This document shows, piece after piece, positions 3,654 to 36,004 of a DNA stretch of 39,245 bases (positions are counted from its first letter, which is position 1; each line of letters starts with the position of its first letter). Position numbers and translations under genes: made by a program. This DNA comes from a virus (lineage: Duplodnaviria; Heunggongvirae; Uroviricota; Caudoviricetes). The DNA lies in the IMG/VR virus record IMGVR_UViG_2558860161_000002. One strand, given 5' to 3'. The notes under the pieces are model-generated. The model had not been told where the DNA came from and did no database searches. It saw only the letters and a program-made list of their open reading frames with translations.

Positions 3654-3708
3654 TGGAGCACCTCAAAAACACCATCATACACTAAATCAGTAAGTTGGTA
3701 GCATCACC

Positions 3709-7700: not shown

Positions 7701-7796
7701 ACTGTTACGTTTTGCTTTCAGCTGGATTGTGCAGTTCTGTACCGGTTTTCCTGTGCCGTCTTTCAGTACACCTGAAATTTTTACTGCCATATTCAC
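4767..7796 (-). CDS. stf: side tail fiber protein (lambda Stf family), 1009 aa with a long Ala/Ser/Thr-rich tract and a C-terminal His-box region
   Basis: N-terminus M(NM)[25 protein letters not shown]; C-terminus with repeated GAHTHS/GAHAHT motifs ending [14 protein letters not shown]. Confidence 0.9.
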
Positions 7797-7800
7797 CCCA

Positions 7801-7828
7801 CAAAAAAGCCCGCCTGAACCGGCGGGCT
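7801..7828 (-). terminator. rho-independent terminator-like hairpin downstream of lom
   Basis: agcccgcc-tgaacc-ggcgggct stem-loop preceded by an A-run on the plus strand (T-run on the minus strand). Confidence 0.5.
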
Positions 7829-7854
7829 GTCATAACACTGTGTTACCTGGCTAA

Positions 7855-8454: not shown

Positions 8455-8520
8455 AATTACCTCTCGCTTTTCTGCAATAAAAAAGGCGTCATTTCTGACG
8501 CCCGTTCTGGGTTATAAAAT

Positions 8521-11922
<3,402 letters not shown>

Positions 11923-11979
11923 TCACGCTCCATAAACGACAAAACCGCCCGCAGGCGGTTTCACATAAAACATTTTGCA

Positions 11980-13292: not shown

Positions 13293-13297
13293 GGGAT

Positions 13298-13996: not shown

Positions 13997-14325
13997 CAGT
14001 TCACCACCTGTTCAAACTCTGCGCTGAACTCAACACGCAGCATACTGACCCGCGACGACCATTTTGCGCAGGTCACCTTTATCTGCCGCCACTCATAAGG
14101 CGGCGTCCACAGAAAGGCTTTCCAGCCCCCGTGCTCAGCCAGAAACGACTCCAGCGCCGTGGCCTCCCAACGGGGAACAGAAAACGTCACGCTGTACGTT
14201 TTCAGGTCGGCATTCAGCCCGGCAGGCGCTCGCTGGGAATAGCCATCACCAAAGCGCACTTTCCTGACGGAAGGGGCCGAAGCCACATCCATACCGGGTT
14301 TCACTTTCCAGCGGAAGGTCTTCAT
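13996..14325 (-). CDS. M: minor tail protein M
   Basis: 109-aa ORF MKTFRWKVKPGMDVASAPSVRKVRFGDGYSQRAPAG... Confidence 0.95.
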   Translation of the reverse strand: MKTFRWKVKPGMDVASAPSVRKVRFGDGYSQRAPAGLNADLKTYSVTFSVPRWEATALESFLAEHGGWKAFLWTPPYEWRQIKVTCAKWSSRVSMLRVEFSAEFEQVVN

Positions 14326-16901
14326 CGTCCACCTCCGGAGAACAGACCACCATCGCGCATCTGTGCCTGAATTTCATCACGGGCACCCTTGCGGGCCATG
14401 TCATACACTGCCTTCATCATCTGTGGACCTGGCAGACCATTCGTACCGTCGTTCTGAATCACCACGTGATTGTTCTGATTAAAATTAATGCCTTCAGCCC
14501 GCCGCATCTGCGCCGGACTTCCGGCACCGCCCACATAACCACCTTCCGCATAGCCCCGCATCAGGCGGTACAGGTTGCCGACACCAATTCGGCTGGTTGC
14601 CTCCTTCGTGAAGACAAATTCACCACGGTGAACAATCCCCGCTGGCTCATATTTGCCGCCGGTTCCCGTAAATCCTCCGGTTGCAAAATGGAATTTCGCC
14701 GCAGCGGCCTGAATGGCTGTACCGCCTGATGCGGATGCGCCGCCACCAACAGCCCCGCCAATGGCGCTACCGATACTCCCGACAATCCCCACCATTGCCT
14801 GCTTAAGCAGAATTTCTGTCATCATGGACAGCACGGAACGGGTGAAGCTGCGCCAGTTCTGCTCACTGCCGGTCAGCATCGCCGCCATATTCTGCGCAAT
14901 ACCATCAAAGGTCTGCGTGGCTGCACTTTTAACCTGCGACATACTGTCCGTGGCGCTCTCTTCCCACTCACTCCAGCCGGACCTGAGGCCTGCCATCCAG
15001 CTCCCGCGAAGCTGGTCTTCAGCCGCCCAGGTCTTTTTCTGCTCTGACATGACGTTATTCAGCGCCAGCGAATTATCGCCATACTGTTCCTTCAGGCGCT
15101 GTTCTGTGGCTTCCCGCGCTGCCTGCCGGTCAGTAAGCCCCCGGTTTTTCGCCTCAATGGCTGCCCGTTTTGCCCGTTGTTGCTGTGCGAACTTATCCGC
15201 CTGCTGCGCCAGCGCGTTCAGGCGCTCCTGATACGTAACCTTGTCGCCAAGTGCAGCCAGCTGGCGTTTGTACTCCAGCGTCTCATCTTTATGCGCCAGC
15301 AGGGATTTCTCCTGTGCGGACAGCTGGCGACGTTGCGCCGCCTCCTCCAGTACCGCGAACTGACTCTCCGCCTTCCACAAATCCCGGCGCTGCTGGCTGA
15401 TTTTCTCATTTGCTCCGGCATGCTTCTCCAGCGTCCGGAGTTCAGCCTGAAGCGTCAGCAGGGCAGCATGAGCACTGTCTTCCTGACGATCGCCCGCAGA
15501 CACTTTCACGCCGGACTGTTTCGGCTTTTTCAGCGTCGCTTCATAATCCTTTTTCGCCGCCGCCATCAGCGTGTTGTAATCTGCCTGCAGGATTTTCCCG
15601 TCTTTCAGTGCCTTGTTCAGTTCTTCCTGACGGGCGGTATATTTCTCCAGCGGCGTCTGCAGGCGTTCGTAAGCCTTCTGCGCCTCTTCGGTATATTTCA
15701 GCCGTGATGCCTCAGACTCGGCCCAGTCCTTTGCTGCCATCTCTCTGGCCTTTTCAAGATCGGCCTGCAACGTGGCGGCTGAAAGCCCAAGTTGCGCATT
15801 CGCTCTGTCCTCCCATGCTCCCCGGAGATTGGCAAGAAATGCTGAGGTTTTACCGCGCCGGTGGCTTCGGCTCTGATACCACTGCCATTTTTTGTCCGCC
15901 TCATCAAAAGCCTTTTCTGCTTTCTCCAGCATTCCCTGGGCAGTGTCCGGGCGACCAATATCCAGCACCGAATCCCACATGGATTTGAATGCCCGTGCTG
16001 TCCTGTCTGCCCAGGTCTCCAGCGTGCCCATGTTCTCTTTCAGGCGGCGGGTCTGGTCATCAAACCCTTTCGTTGCGGCCTCGTTCGCCGCCTGCAATGC
16101 CCCGGCTTCATCTCCGGAACGCTGCAACTGAGCAACATACGCAATCTGCTCCGCCGTCACGTTATGGAACTGACGTGCCATCGCTGTCAGTCCCGACGTC
16201 GGGTCTGTGGTCAGCTTCCCGAAGGCTTCAGCGACCTTGTCCACCTCCACGCCGGATGCAGAGGAGAAACGCGCCACACTCTGGCTGATCGCCTCAAACT
16301 GCTCACCACCACGCACACCGGCATTCACCAGCGCCGTCAGTGACTCGCTGGTCTGGTTAAACGTCAGCCCTGCCGCCTGCCCGGCTCTGGACAGGGCCAG
16401 AATACGATCTGCCGTCAGTCCCGCCTGATTGCCGGAAAGGACCAGCGTTTTGTTGAAATCGGACAGGGTTGAGTTGCCCTGATACCAGGCATACGCCAGC
16501 GCACCGGTCGCCACCGCCAGCGAGGTGGCCCCCACCATCGGCAGGGTGATCGCACCGGCAAGCCCCCTGAACATGGGGATCATCCCGCCGAAGGAGTCCT
16601 TAACCTGACCACCCTGTTGCAGCAGGATCAGCCACGGACTTTGCCCGCCTGCAAGCTGCGTGGCCACGTCGGTGAACTGTGCAGGCAGCATACGCATGGC
16701 GGCTTTATACTGCCCGACGGAAATCCCCGCTTTCTGTGCAGCCAGCGCCTGTCGGCTCAGCGACTGTTCAACGACTGCCGCTGTTTTTTTCGCATCAGTT
16801 TCCGTACCGGAAAAATGACGCCTGACTCTGGCCATCTGCTCGTCAAATCTGGCCGCATCCAGACTTAAATCAACGACCAGATCGCCTACCGGTTCAGCCA
16901 T
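14322..16901 (-). CDS. H: tail tape measure protein H
   Basis: 859-aa ORF MAEPVGDLVVDLSLDAARFDEQMARVRRHF..., coiled-coil rich, Gly-rich C-terminal region. Confidence 0.95.
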   Translation of the reverse strand: MAEPVGDLVVDLSLDAARFDEQMARVRRHFSGTETDAKKTAAVVEQSLSRQALAAQKAGISVGQYKAAMRMLPAQFTDVATQLAGGQSPWLILLQQGGQVKDSFGGMIPMFRGLAGAITLPMVGATSLAVATGALAYAWYQGNSTLSDFNKTLVLSGNQAGLTADRILALSRAGQAAGLTFNQTSESLTALVNAGVRGGEQFEAISQSVARFSSASGVEVDKVAEAFGKLTTDPTSGLTAMARQFHNVTAEQIAYVAQLQRSGDEAGALQAANEAATKGFDDQTRRLKENMGTLETWADRTARAFKSMWDSVLDIGRPDTAQGMLEKAEKAFDEADKKWQWYQSRSHRRGKTSAFLANLRGAWEDRANAQLGLSAATLQADLEKAREMAAKDWAESEASRLKYTEEAQKAYERLQTPLEKYTARQEELNKALKDGKILQADYNTLMAAAKKDYEATLKKPKQSGVKVSAGDRQEDSAHAALLTLQAELRTLEKHAGANEKISQQRRDLWKAESQFAVLEEAAQRRQLSAQEKSLLAHKDETLEYKRQLAALGDKVTYQERLNALAQQADKFAQQQRAKRAAIEAKNRGLTDRQAAREATEQRLKEQYGDNSLALNNVMSEQKKTWAAEDQLRGSWMAGLRSGWSEWEESATDSMSQVKSAATQTFDGIAQNMAAMLTGSEQNWRSFTRSVLSMMTEILLKQAMVGIVGSIGSAIGGAVGGGASASGGTAIQAAAAKFHFATGGFTGTGGKYEPAGIVHRGEFVFTKEATSRIGVGNLYRLMRGYAEGGYVGGAGSPAQMRRAEGINFNQNNHVVIQNDGTNGLPGPQMMKAVYDMARKGARDEIQAQMRDGGLFSGGGR

Positions 16902-17328
16902 ACCGGACTCCTCCTGCGATCCCTTCTGATACTGTCATCAGCATTACGTCATCCTCCGTCATGTCCGCCACATCCGGGGAAGCGGGGATAACTTCATTCC
17001 CGTCCGGGCCAAAGCGGACGCCTCCGGCAAGCCCTGCCGCTTTCTGCATCAGCACATCATCTTCAGGCTCTTCGTCAGCCTCGCGCCGGTTCAGCAGACT
17101 GAAATCCAGCGGATGCATATCCGGCTCGCTGAAAAACAGGCTGAGTACGGTGTACGTCAGCCCGGAAAAGTGCATATCCAGCAGAACATCATGAAAATAA
17201 TGGGTACTGTAAAAGCGGTGCCAGTCGGCATACTCCGTGGATGACATCCCGGCAAGCATGGCGCGCCAGTCGGGTCGCCCCATCTCACGCGCCAGTTTCA
17301 GGGCAAAACTCAGCTCACCGTCGAACAC
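16894..17328 (-). CDS. T: T reading frame of the G-T tail assembly chaperone (expressed in lambda by -1 frameshift from G at the G GGA AAG slippery site)
   Basis: ORF ...FDGELSFALKLAREMGRPDWRAM... overlapping the G 3' end; slippery heptamer gggaaag on the minus strand at about 17322..17330. Confidence 0.85.
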   Translation of the reverse strand: MFDGELSFALKLAREMGRPDWRAMLAGMSSTEYADWHRFYSTHYFHDVLLDMHFSGLTYTVLSLFFSEPDMHPLDFSLLNRREADEEPEDDVLMQKAAGLAGGVRFGPDGNEVIPASPDVADMTEDDVMLMTVSEGIAGGVRYG

Positions 17329-17732
17329 TTTCCCGCAGAAACAGGCTCTGCTGGCCCGGCGTCATCTGCCTGTTCAGGTGCATCATTCACAACAAACTCA
17401 GACATACCGGACAGACGCATTACCACATTTTCAGCCTGAGCAATTGCCTCTGTGGGCCAGGTGGTAAGCACTTCCTGCTCAATTTGTTTAACGGCTTCAT
17501 TCATGGACGGCATCTTTGTCTTCTGCGGATGGCTATGCCACAGGGACATCGCCACCAGAAAAGCACCGGTTCTGACGAGATCTTACACGCTCACCTGTCG
17601 ATTGAGACTGGATCCCGCCTGTTCTGCCTGTCGTTTCAGCAGGGCGAGATGCTCAATTCGCTGCAGGGCTGACAGTTCAGAAAGCGTGACGCTCACACCG
17701 TTATATTCAAATGATTCGGTTTTCAGGAACAT
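17310..17732 (-). pseudogene. G: tail assembly chaperone G interrupted by an in-frame TAA (ochre) at codon 50
   Basis: ATG at 17732 gives MFLKTESFEYNGVSVTLSELSALQRIEHLALLKRQAEQAGSSLNRQVSV then TAA (plus-strand tta at 17583..17585); same frame continues ...GAFLVAMSLWHSHPQKT...SAGKCSTVS to the stop at 17310; total 141 codons as for lambda G. Confidence 0.85.
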
Positions 17733-17747
17733 CGCTGACTCTCCGGA

Positions 17748-18488
17748 TTAACTGTCGGTGACGGTGATTTCTGCAACCACAGCAAGTTCACCATTACCGG
17801 ATACAACCGGAATGTTGACCTTGCCTGCAGCAACACCTTTCACGGTGATGGTCATACCACTGACCGACACGGTGGCTTTTGTTTTATCCGCAGACACCGC
17901 ACGGAAGCTCTTGTCGGTTGCGCCTTCCGGCTGGAATGCCACGGTCAGCGTGGTGCTCTGCCCTTTCACCACCGAAGTGCTGGCAGGCGTCACGGTCATG
18001 CCGGTTGCCGCTGTTACCGTGCTGCGATCTTCTGCCATCGACGGACGTCTCACGTTGGTGACTTTCACCGTGCGGGTGATCACTTCCTTCGCCGTCACCG
18101 CCTTACCGATACTGCTGACCCAGCCGCGGAACACATCGACCGTGCCGTTCGGGAAGCGGATTTTATAGGCTCGGGTATCCCCTTCATTAAACCACGCCAG
18201 CAGCGCCTGCTGCCCCTGCTCTCCGGGCATCCACGCCAGCGTGAAGCTGGTATCTCCGGCAGATTTCTGCCCCTGCCCGGTCGCAGTCCAGTCCGCATCT
18301 TCATCATCGAGATAGCTGTCGTCATAGGACTCAGCGGTCAGTTCGCCGGGCGTCAGGTCTTTAACTTTAGCCAGACGCGACCAGTCAACGTCTGAAAGCG
18401 GGTTCGCATAAGGGTCACCGTTCCCCTTATAAACCCACAGTGTGGTCCCGGCCCCTTTCACCGGCATTACTGGATTTGGTACAGGCAT
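17748..18488 (-). CDS. V: major tail tube protein V (C-terminal Ig-like domain)
   Basis: 246 aa from [36 protein letters not shown]... Confidence 0.95.
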
Positions 18489-18495
18489 ATCGTCC

Positions 18496-18891
18496 TCACA
18501 TTTCATAGGTAATGACATAAGTCAGATCGGCTGAACTCCACAGGCCCGCATCATCGTCGCGCCGGTAGTCATAGCCACTGGCCACCATACTGGTGATCAA
18601 ATCTGACAGTGCCGGGACATCGCTCATCACCGGATAAATCCGGGACTCCATCCACGAATCCAGCTCTGAATCCGGCACCTGAGCAGGCAGGAAAACTTCA
18701 ATATGCAGCTCCGCCTGCCAGGTATCACTGTCCAGCTCTTCGCCCGTGTATTCAGCGCCGGTGAGATAAACGGCAATTGCCGGAAAATCCGCCTCATCAA
18801 AAACAGCGGGGCGACCATCAAAAAGCGTCGCCCCGGTGTCATGCTTCTCCAGTGCATCCAGTACGGCTGCACGGAGTTCAGTATGTTTCAT
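18496..18891 (-). CDS. U: tail terminator protein U
   Basis: 131-aa [36 protein letters not shown]... Confidence 0.95.
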
Positions 18892-19466
18892 CGCTTTATT
18901 ACCATTCTCAGTTGATGCTGCAGCGCATAGCCCAGCTCTTTCGGAAGACGTTCACGCCGTATCCGTTCAATATTCTGTTTAAACGCCGTGGTAAGCGGCA
19001 CCGCCATCGGGATTTTCACCACATCAATGGGGTAACGGTTTTTCCCGGCCACACGCTGCATGACATGCCACCGGCCATTTTTCAGTTGCTGAATAAACGC
19101 GCCGGGAATACGACGGTTTCCCACCACAAGCACGCTGCCGCCACCTTTCAGGGATGAACGCTGCCCCTTTTTACGACGTCTGCGGCGGGAAAGGACAACC
19201 CGCGCGTTACCCAGCTTGATTACGGGCAAATCCCCCCGGTTAACCCTGATTCTGGCCTGCGGATTTTTGACCGTGGCCCTTTTCAGCCTGGCCCTTTCCT
19301 TTACCAGTTTCCGGCGTACCTTTGTCTCACGGGCAACCTGTGACGCAGACTGCGATATCGCGGATGACGCAACGCGGTTAATGGCCATTGCGGCGGCACC
19401 AGGCACCGCCGTTTTGCTGATACGGCTGAGGTTTTCAACGGCCTGCTCAAGACCTTTTATGGCCAT
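18888..19466 (-). CDS. Z: tail completion protein Z
   Basis: 192-aa ORF MAIKGLEQAVENLSRISKTAVPGAAAMAINRV... Confidence 0.95.
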   Translation of the reverse strand: MAIKGLEQAVENLSRISKTAVPGAAAMAINRVASSAISQSASQVARETKVRRKLVKERARLKRATVKNPQARIRVNRGDLPVIKLGNARVVLSRRRRRKKGQRSSLKGGGSVLVVGNRRIPGAFIQQLKNGRWHVMQRVAGKNRYPIDVVKIPMAVPLTTAFKQNIERIRRERLPKELGYALQHQLRMVIKR

Positions 19467-19477
19467 ACATCCCCCTT

Positions 19478-19831
19478 TCAGCGGCGACGGTTAACGGCAG
19501 GCGGCACGCCACGCCCAAGCCAGAGATGACAGCTTCCGCCATCATCCGGCGAAATCCGGTCCACCCAGAAGTTTTCCTCGCCGATGGTCAGTGTGTCTCC
19601 ACGCCGCAGCTGCCGCACATCATCAGTCCGGACAAACAGGGACGGGCTGGAGCCTTCAACGCGCACCCCCTGTCCGGCATAGCTGATATTTTCAGGGTCA
19701 TCAAAAACACCACGTATCACAGCACCGGACAGCTCACCGGATGTCATGGTGGCTGACGTTCCCATGTACCCGCGTATCGTTTCATCGGCGCGGGCAATGG
19801 CAGCATCGAACAGGTTATCGGAATCAGCCAC
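19478..19831 (-). CDS. FII: head-tail connector protein FII
   Basis: 117-aa ORF MADSDNLFDAAIARADETIRGYMGTSATMTSG... Confidence 0.95.
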   Translation of the reverse strand: MADSDNLFDAAIARADETIRGYMGTSATMTSGELSGAVIRGVFDDPENISYAGQGVRVEGSSPSLFVRTDDVRQLRRGDTLTIGEENFWVDRISPDDGGSCHLWLGRGVPPAVNRRR

Positions 19832-19842
19832 AGCGCCTCCCG

Positions 19843-20241
19843 TTATTGCATTCTGGCCAGGCCATGTTCTGTCATTTCGGCTGCCACACCGGCAGAGACA
19901 CGAAACGCCGTTCCCGGCAGCACAAATGCCACAGGCTCATCCCGCGTGGCGTGAAGTGCATCAGTATGCAGCGTCACCAGTGCCACGACCGTGACCAGAG
20001 CAGCCGTATCAATCACGGTATCCGGCTGCGCTGATACCACCTCATTTTCATGTCCGGTCAGCGCATTTTCCGGGCTGACAGATGTGTCCTGACCGGCAGC
20101 GTCATCCGTGTCATCAAGCTCCTCTTCCAGCTCTGCCACACGGAGCACCAGTTCTTCTTTCGTCCCCGTCAGGCTGACATCACGGTTCAGTTGCTCACCC
20201 AGCACCTGAAGACGGGCAATCAGTTCATCTTTCGTCATGGA
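19843..20241 (-). CDS. FI: DNA packaging accessory protein FI
   Basis: 132 aa from MTKDELIARLQVLGEQLNRDVSLTGTKEELV... Confidence 0.9.
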   Translation of the reverse strand, partial: SMTKDELIARLQVLGEQLNRDVSLTGTKEELVLRVAELEEELDDTDDAAGQDTSVSPENALTGHENEVVSAQPDTVIDTAALVTVVALVTLHTDALHATRDEPVAFVLPGTAFRVSAGVAAEMTEHGLARMQ

Positions 20242-20279
20242 CTCCTCCACAGAGAGAAAATGGCCCCGAAGGGCCATGA

Positions 20280-21305
20280 TTACGCCAGTTGTACGGACAC
20301 GAACGCATCAGGATCAGCCAGCAGCATCAGCGGTGCTGACTGAATCATGGTGAACTCACGCGCCGGATCGCCGGTGGTCACCCAGTTTTTCGGGTAGCGG
20401 GCAGAGGCGTTAATACCTTCGCGCTGTGCGTCCGCATCCTGAATGCAGCCATAGGTGCGCAGACCGCGTGCCTGAGTGTTCCCCAGCACCATCGTGTTGT
20501 CCGGCAGGAAGTTCTTTTTGACGTCGTTTTCCACGTACTGTCCGGAATACACGACGATCGCCGTATCGCCATACATCCCCTTATAGGACACCGCTTCGCC
20601 CAGGTCTTTTACCGCTGTCTCCAGCTCGGAATTAGAGCCGCGACGGGTATCCAGCTTCTCCTTGACGGCTTTGAAGGAACGGAACAGCGCCCAGCCTTTC
20701 GGATCAAACACGATGATATTCACCACGCCGCTGGCGTTCAGCGCGTAGGCTTCGATATCGTCGGTCGGGTCATACGTGGACTTGTCACGCTTGCTCCACT
20801 CCGTGCCGCCGGACTGCGTGATGTTGTTCGCCGCACTGCGGCCCATATCCACCTCAACCGGATCGAAGGCTTCACCGGTCATGGTGTATTTGCCCTTGAG
20901 CACGGCAGAAACTGCCTGCATCTCTTCGACCTGAGCAATGGCCAGCTCTTCGTCACGCATGTTCTGCAGGATGATGCGACGGCGGCGGTAAGCCGGGTCC
21001 GCCAGATTCTGCGGATCTTCATCCGGCAGGCGACGCAGGGTCATCTGCGGATTCACCTCATGCTTCGGCTTGACATAACCCGGCGTAAATTCAGAGGTGG
21101 AGCCGCCACGGGAACGGATAACCTCACCGGAAACAATTGGCGAAACGTACAGCGCCATGTTTACCAGTCCAGGAATTTGTGAGAGATAGACTTTCTCCGT
21201 GGTGAAGGGATAGCTCTCACGGAAAAAGAGACGCAGAAACAGCGGATCAAACTTAAATTTCTGCTCATTTGCCGCCAGCAGCTGGGCGGTTGTGTACATC
21301 GACAT
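20280..21305 (-). CDS. E: major capsid protein E
   Basis: 341 aa from MSMYTTAQLLAANEQKFKFDPLFLRLFFRESYPFTTEK... Confidence 0.95.
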   Translation of the reverse strand: MSMYTTAQLLAANEQKFKFDPLFLRLFFRESYPFTTEKVYLSQIPGLVNMALYVSPIVSGEVIRSRGGSTSEFTPGYVKPKHEVNPQMTLRRLPDEDPQNLADPAYRRRRIILQNMRDEELAIAQVEEMQAVSAVLKGKYTMTGEAFDPVEVDMGRSAANNITQSGGTEWSKRDKSTYDPTDDIEAYALNASGVVNIIVFDPKGWALFRSFKAVKEKLDTRRGSNSELETAVKDLGEAVSYKGMYGDTAIVVYSGQYVENDVKKNFLPDNTMVLGNTQARGLRTYGCIQDADAQREGINASARYPKNWVTTGDPAREFTMIQSAPLMLLADPDAFVSVQLA

Positions 21306-21360
21306 AAAAAAATCCCGTAAAAAAAGCCGCACAGGCGGCCTTTAGTGATGAAGGGTCAGG

Positions 21361-21693
21361 TTAAACGATGCTGATTGCCGTTCCGGCAAACGCGGTCCGT
21401 TTTTTCGTCTCGTCGCTGGCAGCCTCCGGCCAGAGCACATCCTCATAACGGAACGTGCCGGACTTGTAGAACGTCAGTGTGGTGCTGGTCTGGTCAGCAG
21501 CAACTACAAGAATGCCAACGGCAGCACCGTCGGTGGTGCCATCCCACGCAACCAGCTTACGGGTGGAGGTGTCCAGCATCAGCGGGGTCATTGCAGGCGC
21601 TTTCGCACTCAACCCGCCGGGCGCGGTTGCGGTATGAGCCGGGTCACTGTTGCCCAGCGGCTGGTAATGGGTAAAGGTTTCTTTGCTCGTCAT
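21361..21693 (-). CDS. D: capsid decoration protein D
   Basis: 110 aa from [33 protein letters not shown]... Confidence 0.95.
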
Positions 21694-21702
21694 AAACATC
21701 CC

Positions 21703-23002
21703 TTACACTGGTGTGTTCAGCAAATCGTTAACGGCATCAGATGCCGGGTTACCTGCAGCCAGCGGTGCCGGTGCCCCCTGCATCAGACGATCCAGCGCAG
21801 TGTCACTGCGCGCCTGTGCACTCTGTGGTGCTGCGGCCAGAATACGGCGGGCCGTTTCCACGGTCATACCGGGGGTTTCGGCCAGCACGCATGCCTGTTC
21901 TTCGCGTCCGTGAGCCTCCTCACAGTTGAGGATCCCCATAATGCGACTGTTTTCTGCCGCAACCGCTGCGGTGATCTGCGCGTTCACGTCCGGCTGCGCA
22001 GCGCTGGCGTTCTCGCCCTCCGTCGCTTGCACCACGCCAGTAACGTCAGCCTGCGAAGCAGTGGCTGAAACAGTTGTTGATTGAGTCTCTTTGGTCATTC
22101 GCCCTCCTGAGAGACGGGATTTACGTGCATCCAGTGCATCACGCATAACGGTGATCGCATCGGTGCTGTTGACAAGTTCATCAGCCAGTCCGGCATCAAT
22201 GGCCTCCTGACCGCTGTACACTGCAGCCTCGGTATCCAGCACAGCCTGCACGGACAGGCCGGTATATGCCGACACCTTCTGTGCAAACATCCGGCGGGTT
22301 GCATCCATCCGGGACTGCAATGTTTCCCGGACATCATCCGGTAGATGGCTGTAGGGGTTGCCATCCACCTTATGGCTGCCGCTGTAAATCAGCGTGATTT
22401 CCACGCCCTGTTTCTCCAGCGCAGCACCGTAATTACTGTGAGCCATCATGACGCCGATGGAGCCTGTCCGGGCGGTCTGCGTGACCAGACGCCGGGAGGC
22501 GGCGCTGGCAAGCAGCTGACCTGCACTGCAGTTCATGTCGTTGGCCAGCGCCCATACCGGTTTTATGTCTCGCACACGGGCGATGATGTCAGCACAGTCA
22601 AATGCTCCCGCCACCATCCCGCCCGGTGTGTCCATATCCAGCAGAATGCCGTCCACCATCGGATCGCTGGCAGCCTGTTGCAGACGGGCGATAATGCCGT
22701 TGTAACCGGTCATCCCCGAATACGGCTGCAGCGCCCGCGTCCGGCTGACCAGCGTGCCGGACACCGGCAGCACGGCGATGCCGTTCATGACCTGATAACT
22801 GCGGGCCTGTCGTGGTCCGTCATCATCAACGGATAACGCCAGCGCCGCGGGTGCCTCTCCGGCAGTCAGGCTGTCGCCGGACACCGCATCCGTCAGGCGG
22901 CTGATCCCAAGCTGGCCTGCAAGCGCACAAAAGAAAACCCGCGCATAGGCGGGTTCAAGCATCAGCGGCTCATTAAAGGCCATACTGGCAATATGCGGGA
23001 GA

Positions 23003-23022
<20 letters not shown>
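21703..23022 (-). CDS. C: head maturation protease C with the in-frame nested scaffold Nu3; apparent GTG start
   Basis: 439 aa from (V/M)TAELRNLPHIASMAFNEPLMLEPAYARVFF...; GGAGGAG Shine-Dalgarno upstream of the GTG at 23020..23022. Confidence 0.9.
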
Positions 23023-26704
<3,682 letters not shown>

Positions 26705-26730
<26 letters not shown>

Positions 26731-27250
26731 TCAGCAACCCCGGTATCAGTTCATCCAGCGCGGCTGCTTTGTTCATGGCTTTGATGATATCCCGTTTCAG
26801 GAAATCAACATGTCGGTTTTCCAGTTCCGGAAAACGCCGCTGCACCGACAGGGGGATCCCGTCGAGAATACTGGCAATTTCACCTGCGATCCGCGACAGC
26901 ACGAAAGTACAGAATGCGGTTTCCACCACTTCAGCGGAGTCTCTGGCATTTTTCAGCTCCTGTGCGTCGGCCTGCGCACGCGTAAGTCGATGGCGTTCGT
27001 ACTCAATAGTCCCTGGCTGGAGATCTGTCTCGCTGGCCTGCCGCAGTTCTTCAACTTCCCGGCGCAGCTTTTCGTTCTCAATTTCAGCATCCCTTTCGGC
27101 ATACCATCTTATAACGGCGGCAGAGTCATAAAGCACCTCATTACCCTTGCCACCGCCTCGCAGAACGGGCATTCCCTGTTCCTGCCAGTTCTGAATGGTA
27201 CGGATACTCGCACCGAAAATGTCAGCCAGCTGCTTTTTGTTGACTTCCAT
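26705..27250 (-). CDS. Nu1: terminase small subunit Nu1
   Basis: 181-aa ORF MEVNKKQLADIFGASIRTIQNWQEQGMPVLRGGGKGNEV... with helix-turn-helix N-terminus, ends ...LLSKYIEQSG. Confidence 0.95.
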
Positions 27251-27439
27251 TGTTCATTCCACGGCCAAAAACAGAGAAAGGAAACGACAGAGGCCCAAAA
27301 GCTCGTTTTCAGCACCTGTCGTTTCCTTTCTTTTCAGGGGGTATTTTAAATAAAAACATTAAGTTACGACGAAGAAGAACGGAAATGCCTTAAACCGGAA
27401 AATTTTCATAAATAGCGAAAACCCGCGAGGTCGCCGCCC
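27251..27439 (-). other. cos packaging site: cosN 12-nt cohesive-end sequence at 27428..27439 plus the cosB region between cosN and Nu1
   Basis: plus-strand aggtcgccgccc is the reverse complement of the lambda cohesive end GGGCGGCGACCT; flanking sequence matches joined lambda left and right ends as recalled. Confidence 0.8.
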
Positions 27440-27638
27440 CGTAACCTGTCGGATCGCCGGAAAGGACCCGCAAAATGATAATAATTATCATCTGCATGTC
27501 ACAACGTGCATCTACGCCATCAAACCACGTCAAATAATCAATTATGACGCAGATATCGTATTAATTGATCTGCATCAACTTAACGTAAAAACAACTTCAG
27601 ACAATACAAATCAGCGACACTGAATACGGGACAACCTC

Positions 27639-27872
27639 ATGTCAACGAAGAACAGAACCCGCAGAACAACAACCCGCAACATCCGCTTTCCTAACCAAAT
27701 GATTGAACAAATTAACATCGCTCTTGAGCAAAAAGGGTCCGGGAATTTCTCAGCCTGGGTCATTGAAGCCTGCCGCCGGAGACTGTGCTCAGAAAAAAGA
27801 GTTTCTTCTGAAGCAAACAAAGAAAAGAGTGACATTACTGAATTGCTCAGAAAACAGGTCAGACCAGATTGA
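27639..27872 (+). CDS. small basic prophage protein (YnfO-like position), 77 aa
   Basis: ORF MSTKNRTRRTTTRNIRFPNQMIEQINIALEQKG...; sits between cos and ydfO. Confidence 0.45.
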   Translation: MSTKNRTRRTTTRNIRFPNQMIEQINIALEQKGSGNFSAWVIEACRRRLCSEKRVSSEANKEKSDITELLRKQVRPD

Positions 27873-27929
27873 AGCAATTTAGATAATCGTGCAGACTACG
27901 CCCCCTCATATCACATGGAAGGTTTATCT

Positions 27930-28340
27930 ATGGATCAGGTAGTCATTTTTAAACAAATATTTGATAAAGTTCGAAACGATTTAAACTATCAATGGTTTTA
28001 TTCTGAGCTAAAACGTCACAATGTCTCACATTACATTTACTATTTAGCCACAGAGAATGTTCATATTGTATTAAAAAATGATAATACAGTGTTATTAAAG
28101 GGCCTAAAAAACATTGTGTCTGTCAAATTTTCAAAGGATAGGCATCTTATAGAAACGACCTCTAATAAGCTGAAATCCAGAGAGATCACATTTCAGGAAT
28201 ACAGAAGAAACCTTGCTAAAGCAGGAGTTTTTCGGTGGGTTACAAATATCCACGAACAAAAAAGATATTACTATACCTTTGATAATTCATTACTATTTAC
28301 TGAAAGCATCCAGAAAACTACACAGATCTTACCACGCTAA
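27930..28340 (+). CDS. ydfO: DUF1398-family prophage protein, YdfO-like, 136 aa
   Basis: ORF from [38 protein letters not shown]...; ggaagg Shine-Dalgarno before the ATG at 27930. Confidence 0.6.
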
Positions 28341-28491
28341 ACCATAACGTCCGGCTTCTCTCACTCCTGAGCCGGACTGCATTGGTTTAATAAAAACCAT
28401 CAACAATTGTGATTTAGATATTCGGAACCATTCAAATATAACAAAACCCCGTAAAAACGAGGTTTATGGATAAATTTTATTATTGAATACA

Positions 28492-28665
28492 TCAGATTAA
28501 ATTAATCTTGACATCATAGCTTTCAAGACCCGTCATTTTTTCCCGTGCGGTAAACTGAATACTGGTAACTTCTTTCCCGGTCTTTTTCTTAAGTTCAATA
28601 ATTTTTTTTGTTATATATTCAGAAATATCTGCTTCTGCTTTTGTTTTTAAGTTTTCAATATTCAT
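28492..28665 (-). CDS. gnsB: GnsA/GnsB-family small protein, 57 aa (below the ORF-track size cutoff)
   Basis: hand translation MNIENLKTKAEADISEYITKKIIELKKKTGKEVTSIQFTAREKMTGLESYDVKINLI; aagagga Shine-Dalgarno upstream. Confidence 0.75.
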   Translation of the reverse strand: MNIENLKTKAEADISEYITKKIIELKKKTGKEVTSIQFTAREKMTGLESYDVKINLI

Positions 28666-28836
28666 CATTTCCTCTTTTAGTCTGTTATGACTTTCCAGTT
28701 ACACAGTAAGTCGATTATATGGTGCAAACGTGTAAAAGATAAGATGAAACATCGCAATAATCAACATACGATAGTCTAAATTTTACACAAACAGACAAAG
28801 AAAATTTTCCTGAATTATCAATACAATAGCATCAAA

Positions 28837-29067
28837 TCAACTCAAGAGCCTTATTGCTGCTTCCAGAATTTCTTCTGAAGTAACATGTCGATCCGCGGCT
28901 ACATAAATGACTTTATGATCTCCGGTCAGAGATGGAAACCCTGCGGCCATTACAGTAAGGTGTGTTTTTTCGCCATTTGGATATTCACGCATGATGGTGT
29001 TAACTCCAGTCATCGCTGGCACTACCACTGCAGGTTCAGAGTTAAAAAAAACTATGATTTTTTTCAT
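28837..29067 (-). CDS. hypothetical small protein (76 aa from MKKIIVFFNSEP...)
   Basis: ORF 28837..29109; no family recognised; weak ribosome-binding site; terminator hairpin only about 48 bp upstream. Confidence 0.3.
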   Translation of the reverse strand: MKKIIVFFNSEPAVVVPAMTGVNTIMREYPNGEKTHLTVMAAGFPSLTGDHKVIYVAADRHVTSEEILEAAIRLLS

Positions 29068-29109
29068 GATGTTACCGTAGTATGTGAGTATCCATCGAAT
29101 AGATACCAA

Positions 29110-29140
29110 GCAAAAAGGCTCCCGAAGGAGCCTTCATTTT
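29110..29140 (-). terminator. rho-independent terminator (bidirectional-looking) downstream of cspI
   Basis: aaggctcc-cgaa-ggagcctt hairpin flanked by an A-run on one side and a T-run on the other. Confidence 0.6.
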
Positions 29141-29338
29141 CACTTTTTTAAATCCAACGACAGACGGCTGGCATTTAAGTATTGTGAAATATTATCAAAT
29201 GTAATCATCATTGATTTACAAAAGATACATTTTGCCCCGAAAGGATTCATGTCAGAAACATCAAAAGATGATGTTCTATACTGGGAACCATGACAACACG
29301 GGCATCTAAAGTGAATATGGTTTGTAATATTGTCTACC

Positions 29339-29492
29339 TCAAAGCGCCACTACATGAACAGCGGCAGGACCTTTAGGTCCGTTCTCAATACCAAATTCAA
29401 CTTCCTGATTCTCAGTTAATGTTTTGAAATCGTTGCTCTGAATTGCTGAGAAATGGACAAACACATCTTTGCTGCCATCTTTCGGCGTGATG
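29339..29492 (-). pseudogene. cspI: cold-shock protein CspI, C-terminal fragment (gene interrupted by IS1)
   Basis: translation [50 protein letters not shown] directly abutting the IS1 left inverted repeat. Confidence 0.85.
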
Positions 29493-29547
29493 GGTGATGC
29501 TGCCAACTTACTGATTTAGTGTATGATGGTGTTTTTGAGGTGCTCCA

Positions 29548-29823
29548 GTGGCTTCTGTTTCTATCAGCTGTCCCTCCTGTTCAGCTACTGACGGGGTGGT
29601 GCGTAACGGCAAAAGCACCGCCGGACATCAGCGCTATCTCTGCTCTCACTGCCGTAAAACATGGCAACTGCAGTTCACTTACACCGCTTCTCAACCCGGT
29701 ACGCACCAGAAAATCATTGATATGGCCATGAATGGCGTTGGATGCCGGGCAACAGCCCGCATTATGGGCGTTGGCCTCAACACGATTTTACGTCACTTAA
29801 AAAACTCAGGCCGCAGTCGGTAA
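29548..29823 (+). CDS. insA: IS1 InsA
   Basis: 91-aa ORF identical to the insA of the IS1 at 2941..3708. Confidence 0.9.
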
Positions 29824-30245
29824 CCTCGCGCATACAGCCGGGCAGTGACGTCATCGTCTGCGCGGAAATGGACGAACAGTGGGGCTATGTCGGGGCTAAA
29901 TCGCGCCAGCGCTGGCTGTTTTACGCGTATGACAGGCTCCGGAAGACGGTTGTTGCGCACGTATTCGGTGAACGCACTATGGCGACGCTGGGGCGTCTTA
30001 TGAGCCTGCTGTCACCCTTTGACGTGGTGATATGGATGACGGATGGCTGGCCGCTGTATGAATCCCGCCTGAAGGGAAAGCTGCACGTAATCAGCAAGCG
30101 ATATACGCAGCGAATTGAGCGGCATAACCTGAATCTGAGGCAGCACCTGGCACGGCTGGGACGGAAGTCGCTGTCGTTCTCAAAATCGGTGGAGCTGCAT
30201 GACAAAGTCATCGGGCATTATCTGAACATAAAACACTATCAATAA
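29742..30245 (+). CDS. insB: IS1 InsB reading frame
   Basis: 167-aa ORF identical to the insB of the IS1 at 2941..3708. Confidence 0.9.
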
Positions 30246-30260
30246 GTTGGAGTCATTACC

Positions 30261-30328
30261 GGCGTGATGAAACCAAAACCTTTTTCAGGGTTAAACCATT
30301 TCACTAAACCAGTCATTTTGTTAGACAT
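30261..30328 (-). pseudogene. cspI: cold-shock protein CspI, N-terminal fragment
   Basis: ATG at 30328; translation [23 protein letters not shown] ending in the 9-bp target duplication. Confidence 0.85.
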
Positions 30329-30690
30329 AATTATTACCTTTTGAAGAAATTAGCCCTTGGGCAGAATGGTCCGAAAAAAATATCAGAGAGAAAAACCAAC
30401 AAGGAAATCTCAAGAGGTACAAATAATAAAATTATAACAATGACTGCTTCAGATAAATTTGTAACAAACCAGAACACCATTAACGCATGATTAACCACCC
30501 ATAGCAAGGATTACTTTTGTAAAGAAAAACACAGCAATGAAAGAATAGCTTTATTTATTAATAATAACGTGTCATTCTGATTAAGACCTTTTATCTTACC
30601 CTTAAGATTTCAGGAATTTTGGCTCATGGAAGAGTCCTTTTTATTTAAATTTTACATTCCGCGATGTAAATGTTCCGATTTAATATTACC

Positions 30691-31714
<1,024 letters not shown>

Positions 31715-31718
<4 letters not shown>

Positions 31719-32026
31719 ATATATTTATGATGAGGACGCTCGTGCTTATTGGCAGGATTTTCAATCTTAAAGGAGTACTGATGCTGCAGATAAGACTCAA
31801 CTTTTTCTGACAATTTTTCTGCTACTTCCAGGAAGACTTGCCGGACGCTCCTTCTGGCTGCTGCCTCATAAAACTCCAGCGCAGCTCCTTCAACACGGTC
31901 CATGGCGACATCCAGGTCAAAAATTTCACCGTCAAAGCGTTCTTTGTCCTGTAAGGCTACAGTTACCGTAACTTTATTCTCAAAATTACGGACTCCTTTC
32001 ACAACCAGTTCATAGTCTTGAGTCAT
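31715..32026 (-). CDS. ydfR: YdfR-like prophage protein of unknown function
   Basis: 103-aa ORF MTQDYELVVKGVRNFENKVTV... between the holin and endolysin genes. Confidence 0.5.
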
Positions 32027-32030
32027 TGGA

Positions 32031-32246
32031 TTACTCTCCTCTCGCAGCCTTACGCCTGTCTTCTTTAATCTTGAAATAAAGATTTGTCAGATACGTCAGC
32101 AGGCCAAAAACCAGGCTACCCAGCACACCGATTGCAGCCCACTGTGACGGAGTTACTTTATCGAGTAACTGCAATGCCCAGAAACCAGCATTACCCGCCG
32201 ATGTGCCATAGGCAACACCTGTTGTTAACTTATCCATTGATTTCAT
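32031..32246 (-). CDS. class II holin / pinholin (phage 21 S-like), 71 aa from [10 protein letters not shown]
   Basis: two hydrophobic helices ([42 protein letters not shown]) and a charged C-terminus, immediately upstream of the endolysin. Confidence 0.8.
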
Positions 32247-32465
32247 ATCCTCACCCCGATGTACACGGATGGTGCAATATGTTTGAAAAGATCGGAGTCT
32301 ACGGGGTAGTTTTGACAGCACACGTTGTTCTCAACGGCGCTAAAAAAACATACACATTAAAAATGTGGGTAATTATTTTGAAAGAAAGTCATATATAAAA
32401 TAATAATACGAGAAATGTTTTCATATTTAGTGTACTGTATACGGCCATTTATACAGGAAAAGCCT

Positions 32466-32636
32466 ATGTCAGAACGTAAAAACTCAAAATCACGCCGTAA
32501 TTATCTCGTTAAATGTTCCTGCCCAAACTGCACCCAAGAGTCAGAACACAGTTTTTCAAGAGTACAAAAAGGTGCCCTTTTGATCTGCCCTCATTGCAAC
32601 AAAGTATTCCAGACAAATCTTAAAGCTGTAGCCTGA
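32466..32636 (+). CDS. ynfU: small zinc-ribbon protein (CxxC...CxxC), 56 aa
   Basis: ORF from MSERKNSKSRRNYLVKCSCPNCTQESEHSFSRVQKGALLICPHCNKVFQTNLKAVA; aggaaaag Shine-Dalgarno. Confidence 0.6.
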   Translation: MSERKNSKSRRNYLVKCSCPNCTQESEHSFSRVQKGALLICPHCNKVFQTNLKAVA

Positions 32637-32695
32637 TTGATTTTATTAGTAACAAGTATTTTTTATATTTTAATAATATATTTAAAGCAGATAAT

Positions 32696-32718
32696 AAAAA
32701 ACCCGCCTGAGCGGGTTT
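32696..32718 (-). terminator. rho-independent terminator downstream of cspB (also abuts the ynfU 3' end)
   Basis: aaacccgc-ctga-gcgggttt hairpin followed on the minus strand by tttttatt. Confidence 0.65.
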
Positions 32719-32999
32719 GAGATTGTGGTGCTTTTTGTGGGAGTCATCCACTTACGCACTTTGTTTTGCCATGCCAGCAGTTAGCTTCTGCTGTAAAACT
32801 ATTCATGCAGCAAACCTGCACTTCACCACAATGGTTAGCATACTTTTCCTGATTAAGATTTTGCCAAATATGCTAGCCATTGTTTCATGTATTGGACCTC
32901 CTTACTTTTTATTAAAGAGATCCAATATTCACTACTCTGTCCGTATCTCTACTCAGGCATCAGCCTTCTTCGTTATCGTATACAGACGAGCGATGAATT

Positions 33000-33215
33000 T
33001 TAATCAGTAATGATGACATTTGCTGCTGCAGGACCTTTAGCACCACTCTCTATAGAGAAGGTAACCTTTTGACCTTCAAATAAGGTTCGATAATTATCAT
33101 TCTGAATCGCAGAAAAATGCACAAACACATCTTTACTACCATCAACAGGAGAAATAAAGCCGAAACCTTTATCAGCGTTAAACCATTTTACTAAACCAGT
33201 CATTTTATTTGACAT
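33000..33215 (-). CDS. cspB: cold-shock protein (CspA family), 71 aa
   Basis: [74 protein letters not shown]. Confidence 0.9.
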
Positions 33216-33515
33216 TCTACATTCCTTAACTTGAGCCTTTCGGCATAAATGGTTTGCATAACAGAAACGACTTCGTACTTAATTGGAGAGACTCAAAGAA
33301 GGAATAAGTGAATAACACCTGAAATGAGAACTGCTTTAGTAAACTACTTCGTATATCGTCTGTTCTTCAAACCGACGCAATCATTAACGCATAGTTGAAC
33401 ATATGAAGCAATGTTTATTTTAGACATCCAGCCATCTTCAACCCCATCAAAAAACTATAGCTTTCTTCAGGAACGTGTGTATAGTGCGCCAAGTTATCAG
33501 TATTAAGGAATTTTT

Positions 33516-33728
33516 TTGTCCCGTAAAATGACAGGAATTGTCAAAACCTTTGACGGCAAAAGCGGCAAGGGTCTTATCACCCCATCCGATGGTCGTATCG
33601 ATGTCCAGCTTCATGTCTCAGCGCTCAATCTCCGCGATGCAGAAGAAATTACCACCGGATTACGCGTGGAATTTTGCCGGATAAATGGTCTGCGTGGCCC
33701 TTCAGCTGCCAATGTTTACCTTTCATGA
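33516..33728 (+). CDS. cspF: cold-shock protein paralog (CspA family), 70 aa, apparent TTG start
   Basis: ORF (M)[69 protein letters not shown]. Confidence 0.8.
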
Positions 33729-34020
33729 GCTATATTAAAGCTTTAATTTCAGGCCCCATCGGATCACACATGGAGAGTTTTTATGAATAACCCCGTCTGT
33801 CTTGATGACTGGTTGATTGGCTTTAAAAGCTTATGCTGTACTTTGGCCGTAATAGCTCTGCTAATAATATAATAAGCAGACTCATTGTGTTTAGGGACAT
33901 TGTACTGGAAGAAAACATTTTAAACATCAGGCAAATAACCAAGTCACCAGCTAAATAATAAGTTAACAGACATGAGTCCCGGGATGAGATTCAACATTAC
34001 CATTGCCCCATTTAAAGCAC

Positions 34021-34044
34021 AAAACCCGCTCATCAGCGGGTTTT
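34021..34044 (-). terminator. tR'-like terminator about 40 nt downstream of the putative late promoter
   Basis: aaaacccgct-catc-agcgggtttt hairpin; read on the minus strand it follows the pR'-like promoter. Confidence 0.5.
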
Positions 34045-34089
34045 CTACTTTTTCTTAACGTCGGGTATACAAAGCCCATCGTTGAAAAA

Positions 34090-34118
34090 ATTTTATCCAT
34101 ATTTTTTGAAAAATGCAA
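34090..34118 (-). promoter_or_regulatory. pR'-like sigma-70 late promoter immediately downstream of Q (expected site of Q action)
   Basis: minus-strand TTGCAT (-35; plus 34113..34118), 17-nt spacer, TAAAAT (-10; plus 34090..34095). Confidence 0.6.
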
Positions 34119-34149
34119 ACATCATGTCGCCATCTTCAGCAAAAATCAT

Positions 34150-34902
34150 TTATCTCGTCACCTTCCTCAATTGCGCTTCCGCGTATGCTTCTTCCTGCCA
34201 GCACTTTGTTACCAGTTTACCAATGACGTCCGCATACCCCTTATACCACTGATAATCGGTCAGGTCTGGTACCAGCTTCTGGACATGACGTCGTGCCAGC
34301 GTGGTCGGTAAACGACTAAACCGGTTTCCATTACAACGCCCACAAATCTTATATACCGGTACGCCATGAAACCGGGTTCTTTTTTCATCCAGAACAATCC
34401 CTTTACCCTTACACCCTCTGCACGCTGTGCTGGCTTCGCCCTTACCATGGCAATGCTGACATAGTTCCTTCACCCATTCTTCCTTGATTACAGATTCCCC
34501 GCGTCTGTAGTGTTTCACCACTTCGCGCAATACATTATAAAATCCCGTACCTGAACAATGCTCACAGCGAGCCTTACTTGCCGCAGACCTGGAGTAATCA
34601 GCAAAGGCAAAACTCACGAGGTAAGGAATAATCTGTAACCGGATTTCTTCACTCAATTTGTTCAATGTCGGGTTATCCAGTGCCATCGCGTAATTTAGCA
34701 GGCCTTCAATCGCAAACTGAGGGTCCTGAACACCAACTTTTGCCAGAAATAAGGCCAACCCAAGTGGTGCTTTCGACTGCACCATCCCCTGCGCTGCCAT
34801 TACATCCGTAATTGTTAAACAACCGGTGCCTGTCGCTGGAGCGTCATCGCTCAATTTTGGAGATTTTGGGGAGTAATATTTTGGTAAGGCTTCAAGGTTC
34901 AT
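34150..34902 (-). CDS. quuQ: late-gene antitermination protein Q (lambdoid Q family with Cys-rich zinc-binding motifs), 250 aa from MNLEALPKYY
   Basis: ORF with CxxC...CxxC clusters (CEHCSGTG, CQHCHGKG, CRGCKGKG, CGRCNG); directly upstream of the pR'-like promoter. Confidence 0.8.
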   Translation of the reverse strand: MNLEALPKYYSPKSPKLSDDAPATGTGCLTITDVMAAQGMVQSKAPLGLALFLAKVGVQDPQFAIEGLLNYAMALDNPTLNKLSEEIRLQIIPYLVSFAFADYSRSAASKARCEHCSGTGFYNVLREVVKHYRRGESVIKEEWVKELCQHCHGKGEASTACRGCKGKGIVLDEKRTRFHGVPVYKICGRCNGNRFSRLPTTLARRHVQKLVPDLTDYQWYKGYADVIGKLVTKCWQEEAYAEAQLRKVTR

Positions 34903-34915
34903 GCTCGTTCTCCAC

Positions 34916-36004
34916 TTACGCCAGTACGCCAATTGCCAGCGCGCGATCGATAAAACGAAATATCAGCTCCAGTTGGGAGCCATACTTATCTTCAAATGCC
35001 ACTGTATCCGTATGCAGCTCGTTGTGATGCTTTCTGCACAAAGGCAACACAAAGAGATCATGTGCTTTTGTTCCCATTCCGCCCTGCCCGTGACCAATCA
35101 GATGATGCGGATCGTCGGCTGGCATACCGCAGCAAGCACACGGCTGTGTCTTAACCCAACGTGTGTATTTCTCCTTAACCCAGCGGCGACGTTTAGGCAG
35201 CTTCATGAAAGATTCCGGAGACTCTGGATCAACGGTGATGCTTACCACCGTCTTTTCCTGTGGTGATTTTTGTTGCTGGTGGGCGTAAGGCAACGGTGCA
35301 AGATTTTTTGTGCGTTGTTTCAATATGCTGGTGGCGGTCTGCTCTCCCGGTACGATGTCGCTTTCGCGGTACACCGAGCAGATTTTTTCCGCTGGTAATC
35401 CCAGCGAACGACGCGATACAGCCTCAGGTAGTGCATCCACCACCTGATTGCAGACCGCCCACCAGGATAATTCAGCCAAAGATAATTCCCGCTCCTGCGT
35501 ACCGCTTATTGCGTGACGGATGACGTCAATCACCCATGCTGTCAGATTTTGTTGAGCAAGCAGCTCCAGTGATTCCGATGTCTGGTCACGCAGTTGGTTG
35601 TCGCAGTGCCAGCACAACACCATTGCGCCGGTACCATAACGGTGAATGACTGTTTCAGTGTGATGGTAATCGCCATTAGGCCACTGGCAGGATGTAACAT
35701 GACGTAATAGCCAGTCGGACAATGCGCCAACGCCGCCAGCAGCACGAATCACCCGTTCGTTACTAAAAAACGGCAGCAATGTTTTGTCTTCCGCCAGCGG
35801 CTGGCGAACGGCAGGAACGACTCCGGATGGCAGATTACGCATGCTTTTTGGTTCCGGTTCCACCAGCACTCGAGGATTATGAAATATCTGTATGGATTCA
35901 CGGCCCGGCTTAAGGACCACCAGCCCAAGCTCAGGCACCAGAACAGGTCTAAGTAATACCCGCACGTTACCTCCAGATCCGTTGCTGGAAAGTGCGGGAC
36001 GCAC
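34916..36004 (-). CDS. ydfU: YdfU-like (DUF968) protein with a C-terminal HNH-like Cys/His motif; start uncertain
   Basis: ORF containing ...QPCACCGMPADDPHHLIGHGQGGMGTKAHDLFVLPLCRKHHNELH... Confidence 0.6.
   Translation of the reverse strand: MRPALSSNGSGGNVRVLLRPVLVPELGLVVLKPGRESIQIFHNPRVLVEPEPKSMRNLPSGVVPAVRQPLAEDKTLLPFFSNERVIRAAGGVGALSDWLLRHVTSCQWPNGDYHHTETVIHRYGTGAMVLCWHCDNQLRDQTSESLELLAQQNLTAWVIDVIRHAISGTQERELSLAELSWWAVCNQVVDALPEAVSRRSLGLPAEKICSVYRESDIVPGEQTATSILKQRTKNLAPLPYAHQQQKSPQEKTVVSITVDPESPESFMKLPKRRRWVKEKYTRWVKTQPCACCGMPADDPHHLIGHGQGGMGTKAHDLFVLPLCRKHHNELHTDTVAFEDKYGSQLELIFRFIDRALAIGVLA

Follow-up and report, generated by a model that had tools for sequence, protein, structure and literature searches.

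The prophage carried on the window (the whole stretch of DNA analysed here, 39,245 nucleotides long) contains the cold-shock gene cspI in two pieces, with an IS1 element between them. This raises the question of how the gene came to be divided: by a plain insertion, by one end of a larger IS1-mediated rearrangement, by inheritance of an allele that arose elsewhere, or by an error in assembling a draft genome. It further raises the question of what is left of cspI function, and whether the position that was struck is one that IS1 prefers. Coordinates of the features discussed are collected in Table 1.

Table 1. Positions of the cspI fragments, of the IS1 element between them and of the other IS1 copies in the window.
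Feature	Position	Strand	Remarks
Partial IS1	1..95	+	window begins inside this copy
Complete IS1	2941..3708	-	splits pinQ (Qin invertase)
cspI 3' part, codons 20-70 and stop	29339..29492	-	severed from promoter, 5'UTR and start codon
Left target-site duplication copy	29484..29492	.	GGCGTGATG; single-copy in L003 37774..37782
Complete IS1, IS1A type	29493..30260	+	768 bp by length and ends
IS1 left terminal inverted repeat (IRL)	29493..29515	+	GGTGATGCTGCCAACTTACTGAT, directly after left GGCGTGATG
insA, 91 aa	29548..29823	+	transposition inhibitor, DNA-binding N-terminal part of transposase; ORF and Pfam
insB' frame	29742..30245	+	DDE catalytic domain of transposase
A6C motif AAAAAAC	29799..29805	+	predicted site of programmed -1 frameshift joining insA to insB'
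IS1 right terminal inverted repeat (IRR)	30238..30260	-	GGTAATGACTCCAACTTATTGAT read inward
Right target-site duplication copy	30261..30269	.	GGCGTGATG
cspI 5' part, codons 1-23	30261..30328	-	reads into IRR, stop at 30239, 29-aa product
cspI 5' untranslated leader	30329..30456	-	upstream half of cspA-type thermoregulator, still joined to 5' fragment

A complete IS1A-type element lies within cspI

An earlier note on this DNA had described a complete 768-bp IS1 in cspI, flanked by a perfect 9-bp direct duplication. Both parts of this description were borne out, with insA and insB' intact, the A6C motif present and the two copies of GGCGTGATG exact and exactly where they had been placed. Scanning both strands of the 39,245-base window with a script found GGCGTGATG at these two positions only, and the chance identity of two given 9-mers is 4^-9, or ~4e-6. 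Homology between the flanks goes beyond the 9 bp by just a single base 5' of each copy, which at the right copy is a C, the last base of IS1 itself. Read in the sense of cspI, the duplicated bases are CATCACGCC and make up nt 60-68 of the gene, within codons F-I-T-P.

IS1 is defined by a length of ~768 bp and by terminal inverted repeats of ~23-30 bp beginning GGTGATG or GGTAATG (PMC12428005). The element in cspI has this length, and its terminal inverted repeats are imperfect, with IRL and IRR agreeing at 18 of 23 positions. On the plus strand its right end reads ATCAATAAGTTGGAGTCATTACC, ending at 30260 and followed by GGCGTGATG. Direct target duplications of 8 or 9 bp are a published signature of IS1, described in section 16 of PMC5009759 and credited to Grindley 1978 where PMC12428005 cites that work; the duplication at cspI is 9 bp long and present on both sides. 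A preference for AT-rich target DNA is also given in section 16 of PMC5009759, and the cspI flanks agree with it, having 30-38% G+C vs 51-57% inside the IS1.

The transposase is encoded in two consecutive frames with Pfam matches above the gathering scores. InsA carries a zinc ribbon (PF03811 Zn_ribbon_InsA, 1.3e-21) and an HTH domain (PF12759 HTH_Tnp_IS1, 4.7e-31), and the DDE profile is matched over its full length by insB' (PF03400 DDE_Tnp_IS1, 2.3e-78), which also scores 145.6 bits against NF033558 transpos_IS1 (cut-off 100). The slippery A6C motif lies in the overlap of insA and insB', and a programmed -1 frameshift at A6C is established IS1 biology (PMC12428005). When a -1 slip was simulated at this motif, the product was a 232-aa InsAB', the size of the IS1A transposase CDS that RefSeq annotates with a 'programmed frameshift'. 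All IS1-defining features that are visible at the sequence level are found in this copy.

Compared with IS1A of K-12 MG1655, 767 of 768 positions are identical, the sole difference being G vs T at IS position 444, and many copies annotated 'IS1-like element IS1A family' equal the element in cspI at all 768. The element and K-12 IS1A are alike in terminal repeats, insA/insB' frames, A6C motif and 9-bp direct duplication, and they differ only in location (here cspI nt 60-68) and in that one base. Going by these comparisons, the IS1 in cspI is not an element distinct from K-12 IS1A.

Removal of the element restores an intact gene in a colinear prophage

The two cspI parts, 29339..29492 and 30261..30328, both lie on the minus strand, in line with the earlier claim that they share a strand, and together they amount to 222 nt, which equals 213 nt plus the 9 duplicated bases. 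Taking out 29493..30269 had been expected to bring back an intact 70-aa cold-shock ORF, a broken reading frame being the outcome that would tell against an insertion. Removal in silico gave a 213-nt minus-strand ORF of 70 aa with a continuous frame, which is intact cspI. A comparison with strains lacking the insertion had also been proposed, and here the restored ORF and the cspI annotated in E. coli MLI104K1 (WP_000066495.1) were identical over 213/213 nt.

The reconstructed protein has the ~70-aa size and the one cold-shock domain of the CspA family (PF00313 CSD, 1.6e-31, residues 5-69). Its orthology with CspI is seen in the 100% nt and aa identity to WP_000066495.1 and in the same neighbours, the gene order rzpQ - cspI - ymcF/ynfQ - ynfR - ynfN - gnsB being that of MLI104K1. 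NCBIfam holds no CspI-specific model, and the top-scoring model there, the CspG equivalog, reached 137.8 bits against a cut-off of 144. Cold-inducible expression and RNA-chaperone activity are further marks of the CspA family. The restored ORF is thus identical to CspI and occupies the same place as cspI (b1552), the cold-inducible CspA-family gene of the Qin cryptic prophage; in contrast to intact b1552, cspI here is interrupted and non-functional.

The MLI104K1 genome (NZ_CP116923) carries, in the region we refer to as L003, a Qin-type lambdoid prophage in which both pinQ and cspI are intact, and a 25-kb stretch of the window (3709..28700) equals it at 100.0%. In BLAST alignments the left flank, window 3709..29492, corresponds to L003 12001..37782 with 99.93% identity over 25.8 kb, and the right flank, window 30260..31728, corresponds to L003 37773..39240. 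Both flanks are colinear with L003 and in the same orientation; their overlap is the 9 target bases, present in L003 as one copy. The prophage in the window retains a full lambda-like head and tail module, in contrast to the K-12 Qin remnant, which is not known to have one.

As the flanks are colinear with the MLI104K1 prophage, no rearrangement is involved. The earlier reading of the structure as a simple insertion therefore stands, with a direct 9-bp duplication, exact restoration on excision and flanks colinear with an uninterrupted relative. Within this strain's lineage, an IS1A-type element has almost certainly jumped into the cspI gene of the Qin prophage, at codons 20-23, and nothing in the sequence contradicts this explanation. 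The InsAB' transposase, made by a -1 frameshift at A6C, would have cut GGCGTGATG with a 9-bp stagger, the IS ends would have been joined to the staggered cuts, and gap repair would then have produced the direct 9-bp duplication, the insertion into cspI taking place without any accompanying rearrangement. Staggered cuts, and a cut-and-paste or copy-in mode of insertion, would be expected from the established biology of IS1.

The sole record with the cspI::IS1 allele is a scaffold-level draft, and IS1 is a multi-copy repeat, the median E. coli genome having it at 11 places, hence a scaffolder or gap-filler might have placed an IS1 copy into cspI. We consider such an artefact extremely improbable, as an assembler cannot invent a 9-bp duplication abutting exact IS1 termini together with perfect restoration of the frame on removal. 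Furthermore, two independent complete genomes have IS1 at the same or the homologous position (see below), which indicates that the site is biologically usable. In a draft assembly the interior of every IS1 copy may reflect a consensus that the assembler built from all of them, hence little weight can be placed on how nearly identical the three copies in the window are; this caveat spares the junctions and the duplication at cspI.

IS1 has also produced an inversion at pinQ

The pinQ region is made up of 1..95, 96..2940, 2941..3708 and 3709..4094, and the two halves of pinQ point in opposite directions. Segment 96..2940 (2.8 kb) holds the 5' part of pinQ, ydfK, ynfT and a ydfJ remnant and has an IS1 copy at either end, the two being inverted. 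It corresponds to L003 12009..9165 and is therefore inverted relative to MLI104K1; from position 3709 the window resumes at L003 12001. The target bases, 8 bp long, are found as two inverted copies, CAGTTTTG at 96..103 and CAAAACTG at 3709..3716. The earlier note had set an inverted duplication at the invertase against the direct one at cspI; the contrast stands, the pinQ duplication being 8 bp and not 9 bp long. The IS1 at pinQ is of the same type as that in cspI, however, the pinQ target pair is inverted and lies on two IS1 copies, whereas the cspI pair is direct.

This arrangement carries the signature of either intramolecular replicative transposition or a plain insertion after which inverted IS1 copies recombined. 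Both histories end in the same sequence, and the window does not reach the outer flank of the first IS1. It had also been claimed that at least two independent IS1 events shaped the prophage, and we agree, as the inverted structure at pinQ and the plain insertion at cspI need separate events. Three events behind the pinQ-side structure and the cspI insertion are more likely than two. This Qin-type prophage has, in any case, been struck by IS1 at least twice.

Over 768 bp the pinQ and cspI copies differ at a single site, IS position 10 (window 3699), where the pinQ copy has A and the cspI copy G. This position falls in the left terminal inverted repeat, and in a draft assembly such differences between copies may be unreliable.

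With two further IS1 copies in the window, one of which (2941..3708) has the opposite orientation to the cspI copy at a distance of 25.8 kb, and with IS1 having caused an inversion at the pinQ end, the cspI structure might itself be one end of a larger IS1-mediated inversion or deletion. An inversion would have left the target copies inverted on different IS copies, as at pinQ, but at cspI they are direct and flank one IS. To the left and right of the cspI IS1, moreover, the genes have exactly the order and orientation of the reference prophage, and this colinearity refutes a larger rearrangement, to which we attach next to no credence; the structure is better read as a simple insertion.

The inverted, near-identical copies at 2941..3708 and 29493..30260 lie on either side of the whole tail, head and packaging module, with 25.8 kb between them, and homologous recombination could readily invert it in future. 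The corresponding 25.8-kb inversion is absent from the window, where the order is colinear with MLI104K1. An apparent 2-bp extension of their inverted match (giving arms of 772 nt) was set aside as a chance match of 2+2 bp, both flanks being colinear with the reference.

Distribution and age of the cspI::IS1 allele

A 200-bp query for the empty site was matched without interruption in 2,140 of the 5,426 complete E. coli genomes searched; the identity was ≥99% in 1,575 of these, and a K-12 derivative was among them. The whole region and each junction were also searched, and the two cspI::IS1 junctions were found together in 0 of the 5,426. As the empty site is common and both junctions occur in no complete genome, the insertion is derived and recent. 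Apart from O78 strain 3 and EC06, which are described below, matches reported as '100% covered' consisted of two or three joined pieces with IS1 nearby and not at the site, a verdict checked on ten fetched loci.

The 55-aa ORF at the left junction, whose first five residues come from the IS1 end, was used as a probe and returned exactly one contig on record, scaffold KE137120.1 of GCA_000408465.1, where the locus is equal to window 23339..35506 at 100% identity over 12,168 bp. The cspI::IS1 allele hence looks private to this assembly. It is marked by the k-mers CGGCGTGATGGGTGATGCTGCC and CATTACCGGCGTGATGAAACC. Exact junction 32-/33-mers gave zero matches in GTDB species representatives, JGI metagenomes and IMG/VR, zeros that are uninformative given that these collections consist of one genome per species or of short-read contigs. 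A literature search on cspI with IS1 found nothing relevant.

Transposition within this lineage has to be weighed against the allele having been inherited, or imported by recombination or transduction, from a lineage that already carried it, such as an ancestor of O78 strain 3 (NZ_CP084096, L001 3234..4882). This genome has an IS1 in cspI in the same orientation, and its left junction is identical to that of the window over a 100-bp query, so that strictly the insertion could be older and shared. The right end of the O78 IS1, however, abuts a truncated rrrQ at window-equivalent 31497, which leaves only one junction in common, the right one having been lost to a deletion reaching rrrQ. The pattern fits an IS1 that entered the same site and then promoted a deletion next to itself. 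A second IS1 is located 112 bp further into cspI in the same strain.

The cspI IS1 copies of O78 strain 3 and the window differ at 2 of 768 positions, and at one of these, IS position 262, the O78 copy has the T of its own neighbouring IS1 where the window copy has A. The prophage arm common to the two differs at 15 of 4,002 positions, too many for close clonal kinship. Furthermore, an old shared insertion would be expected to recur widely among the 2,140 genomes with this locus, yet both junctions are found in none. On account of IS position 262, the arm differences and the fact that a shared old insertion is not widespread, the O78 insertion is more likely to be independent of that in the window than shared by descent. 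Inheritance or import is accordingly an unlikely source of the allele, and it would alter only the timing of the transposition into cspI and not its nature.

Consequences for cspI and its neighbours

The 5' fragment of cspI retains the promoter and leader, and a 55-codon junction ORF on the minus strand (29339..29506), covering the 3' fragment, begins at a TTG inside IRL. As predicted from these frames, cspI is a null allele, reduced to an N-terminal stub of 29 aa and a 3' fragment that has no promoter.

The Rfam model of the cspA thermoregulator (RF01766) spans both leader and coding region. On the uninterrupted cspI of L003 it gives one match of 114.2 bits, above the gathering score of 78, but in the window it is found as two halves, 30265..30456 at 55.2 bits and 29308..29511 at 50.9 bits, both below that score. 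The long cspA-type leader of CspI genes is therefore seen in the uninterrupted relative, and the element is split in the window; by this model, the cspA-like mRNA thermoregulator of cspI is cut in two and broken. The paralog cspB (32984..33376, minus strand) is intact and together with its leader scores 158.8 bits against RF01766. The first 71 nt at its 5' end share 83% identity with the cspI 5' fragment.

Downstream, ymcF/ynfQ begins 11 bp past the cspI stop, with ynfR and ynfN close behind on the same strand, and polarity of the IS1 probably lowers expression of these three genes. Going by established biology, loss of cspI would be phenotypically neutral, with the paralogs cspA, cspB and cspG able to cover its function. 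The case is a textbook IS1 insertion in a non-essential prophage gene; the biology is already known, and the value of the finding lies mainly in annotation. The gene should be annotated as a cspI pseudogene interrupted by IS1, and the 29-aa and 55-aa junction ORFs are to be treated as artefacts of the insertion, not as genes.

Recurrent IS1 insertion at csp genes

Hot spots for IS1 are already known in general, and recurrence at the cspI position raises the question of whether this is one. In EC06 (NZ_CM169496, L002 4057..4824) cspI is intact; an IS1 lies instead in its paralog cspB, oriented as in the window and flanked by 9-bp copies of GGAGAAATA. This duplication aligns exactly with GGCGTGATG of cspI and occupies nt 60-68 in both genes, hence the position and orientation of the EC06 insertion are those of the window. 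With O78 strain 3, the same csp codons have been hit by IS1 in three genomes, which provides a small but concrete lead on how IS1 chooses its targets.

Ten other IS1 junctions near cspI were found in other complete E. coli genomes, all at different positions (window-equivalent 28402, 28494, 28735, 29014, 29091, 29242, 29380, 30417, 30676 and 30791). These junctions, at least ten in number, lie within ~1.3 kb either side of cspI (window-equivalent 28402..30799; loci L004-L008 and L012-L015), spread over ydfO-gnsB, gnsB, ynfN, ymcF, the cspI leader and rzpQ; most of these nearby insertions have target-site duplications of 8-9 bp and some have adjacent deletions. IS1 often lands in the AT-rich accessory region of Qin, but exact coincidence is specific to cspI nt 60-68.

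Under a uniform model with about eleven insertions in ~2.4 kb, a second same-orientation IS1 at a given position has a probability of ~0.005, a figure that excludes the cspB coincidence and comes from post hoc reasoning on searches that favoured coincident sites. The cspI target ends in GTGATG, which equals bases 2-7 of the IS1 end (GGTGATG), and in older work on IS1/Tn9 the targets reportedly resembled IS ends. It is possible, though we regard it as somewhat doubtful, that nt 60-68 of CspA-family genes (F-I-T/S-P, end of the RNP1 motif) form a position- and orientation-specific hot spot for IS1.

Chimeric queries in the same orientation for the homologous site in cspA and cspG returned no single-piece junction match except for a cross-match to cspB of EC06, and hence lend the hot-spot idea no further support. 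IHF was considered as an explanation and rejected, given that a sequence resembling the consensus WATCAANNNNTTR is found in cspI only with one mismatch and 55 bp off, and none lies near the cspB target. Across 150 reconstructed IS1 target duplications, PMC5009759 describes no clear sequence motif. If the hot spot at csp genes is real, it would be a natural and compact substrate for learning what IS1 recognises in its targets.

In K-12 MG1655 (1049778..1052240, L011), an IS1D is situated ~420 bp from cspH in the paralogous cluster cspH / cspG-ymcF-ymcE-gnsA, a further case of IS1 beside a csp cluster.

Other features of the prophage

To the right of the stretch shared with MLI104K1, the part of the window containing the lysis genes and cspB-cspF (31729..34915) is mosaic relative to that strain, with 86% identity at 31821..32274 and no match over 32275..34915. 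The same part, 31729..34915, shows 99.8-99.9% identity to EC06. A direct repeat of 107 nt, 77% identical, is present at 6177..6283 and 6309..6415 with a spacing of 132 nt. It lies inside the region matching the large tail-fibre gene of the reference prophage and probably reflects a repeat within the fibre protein.
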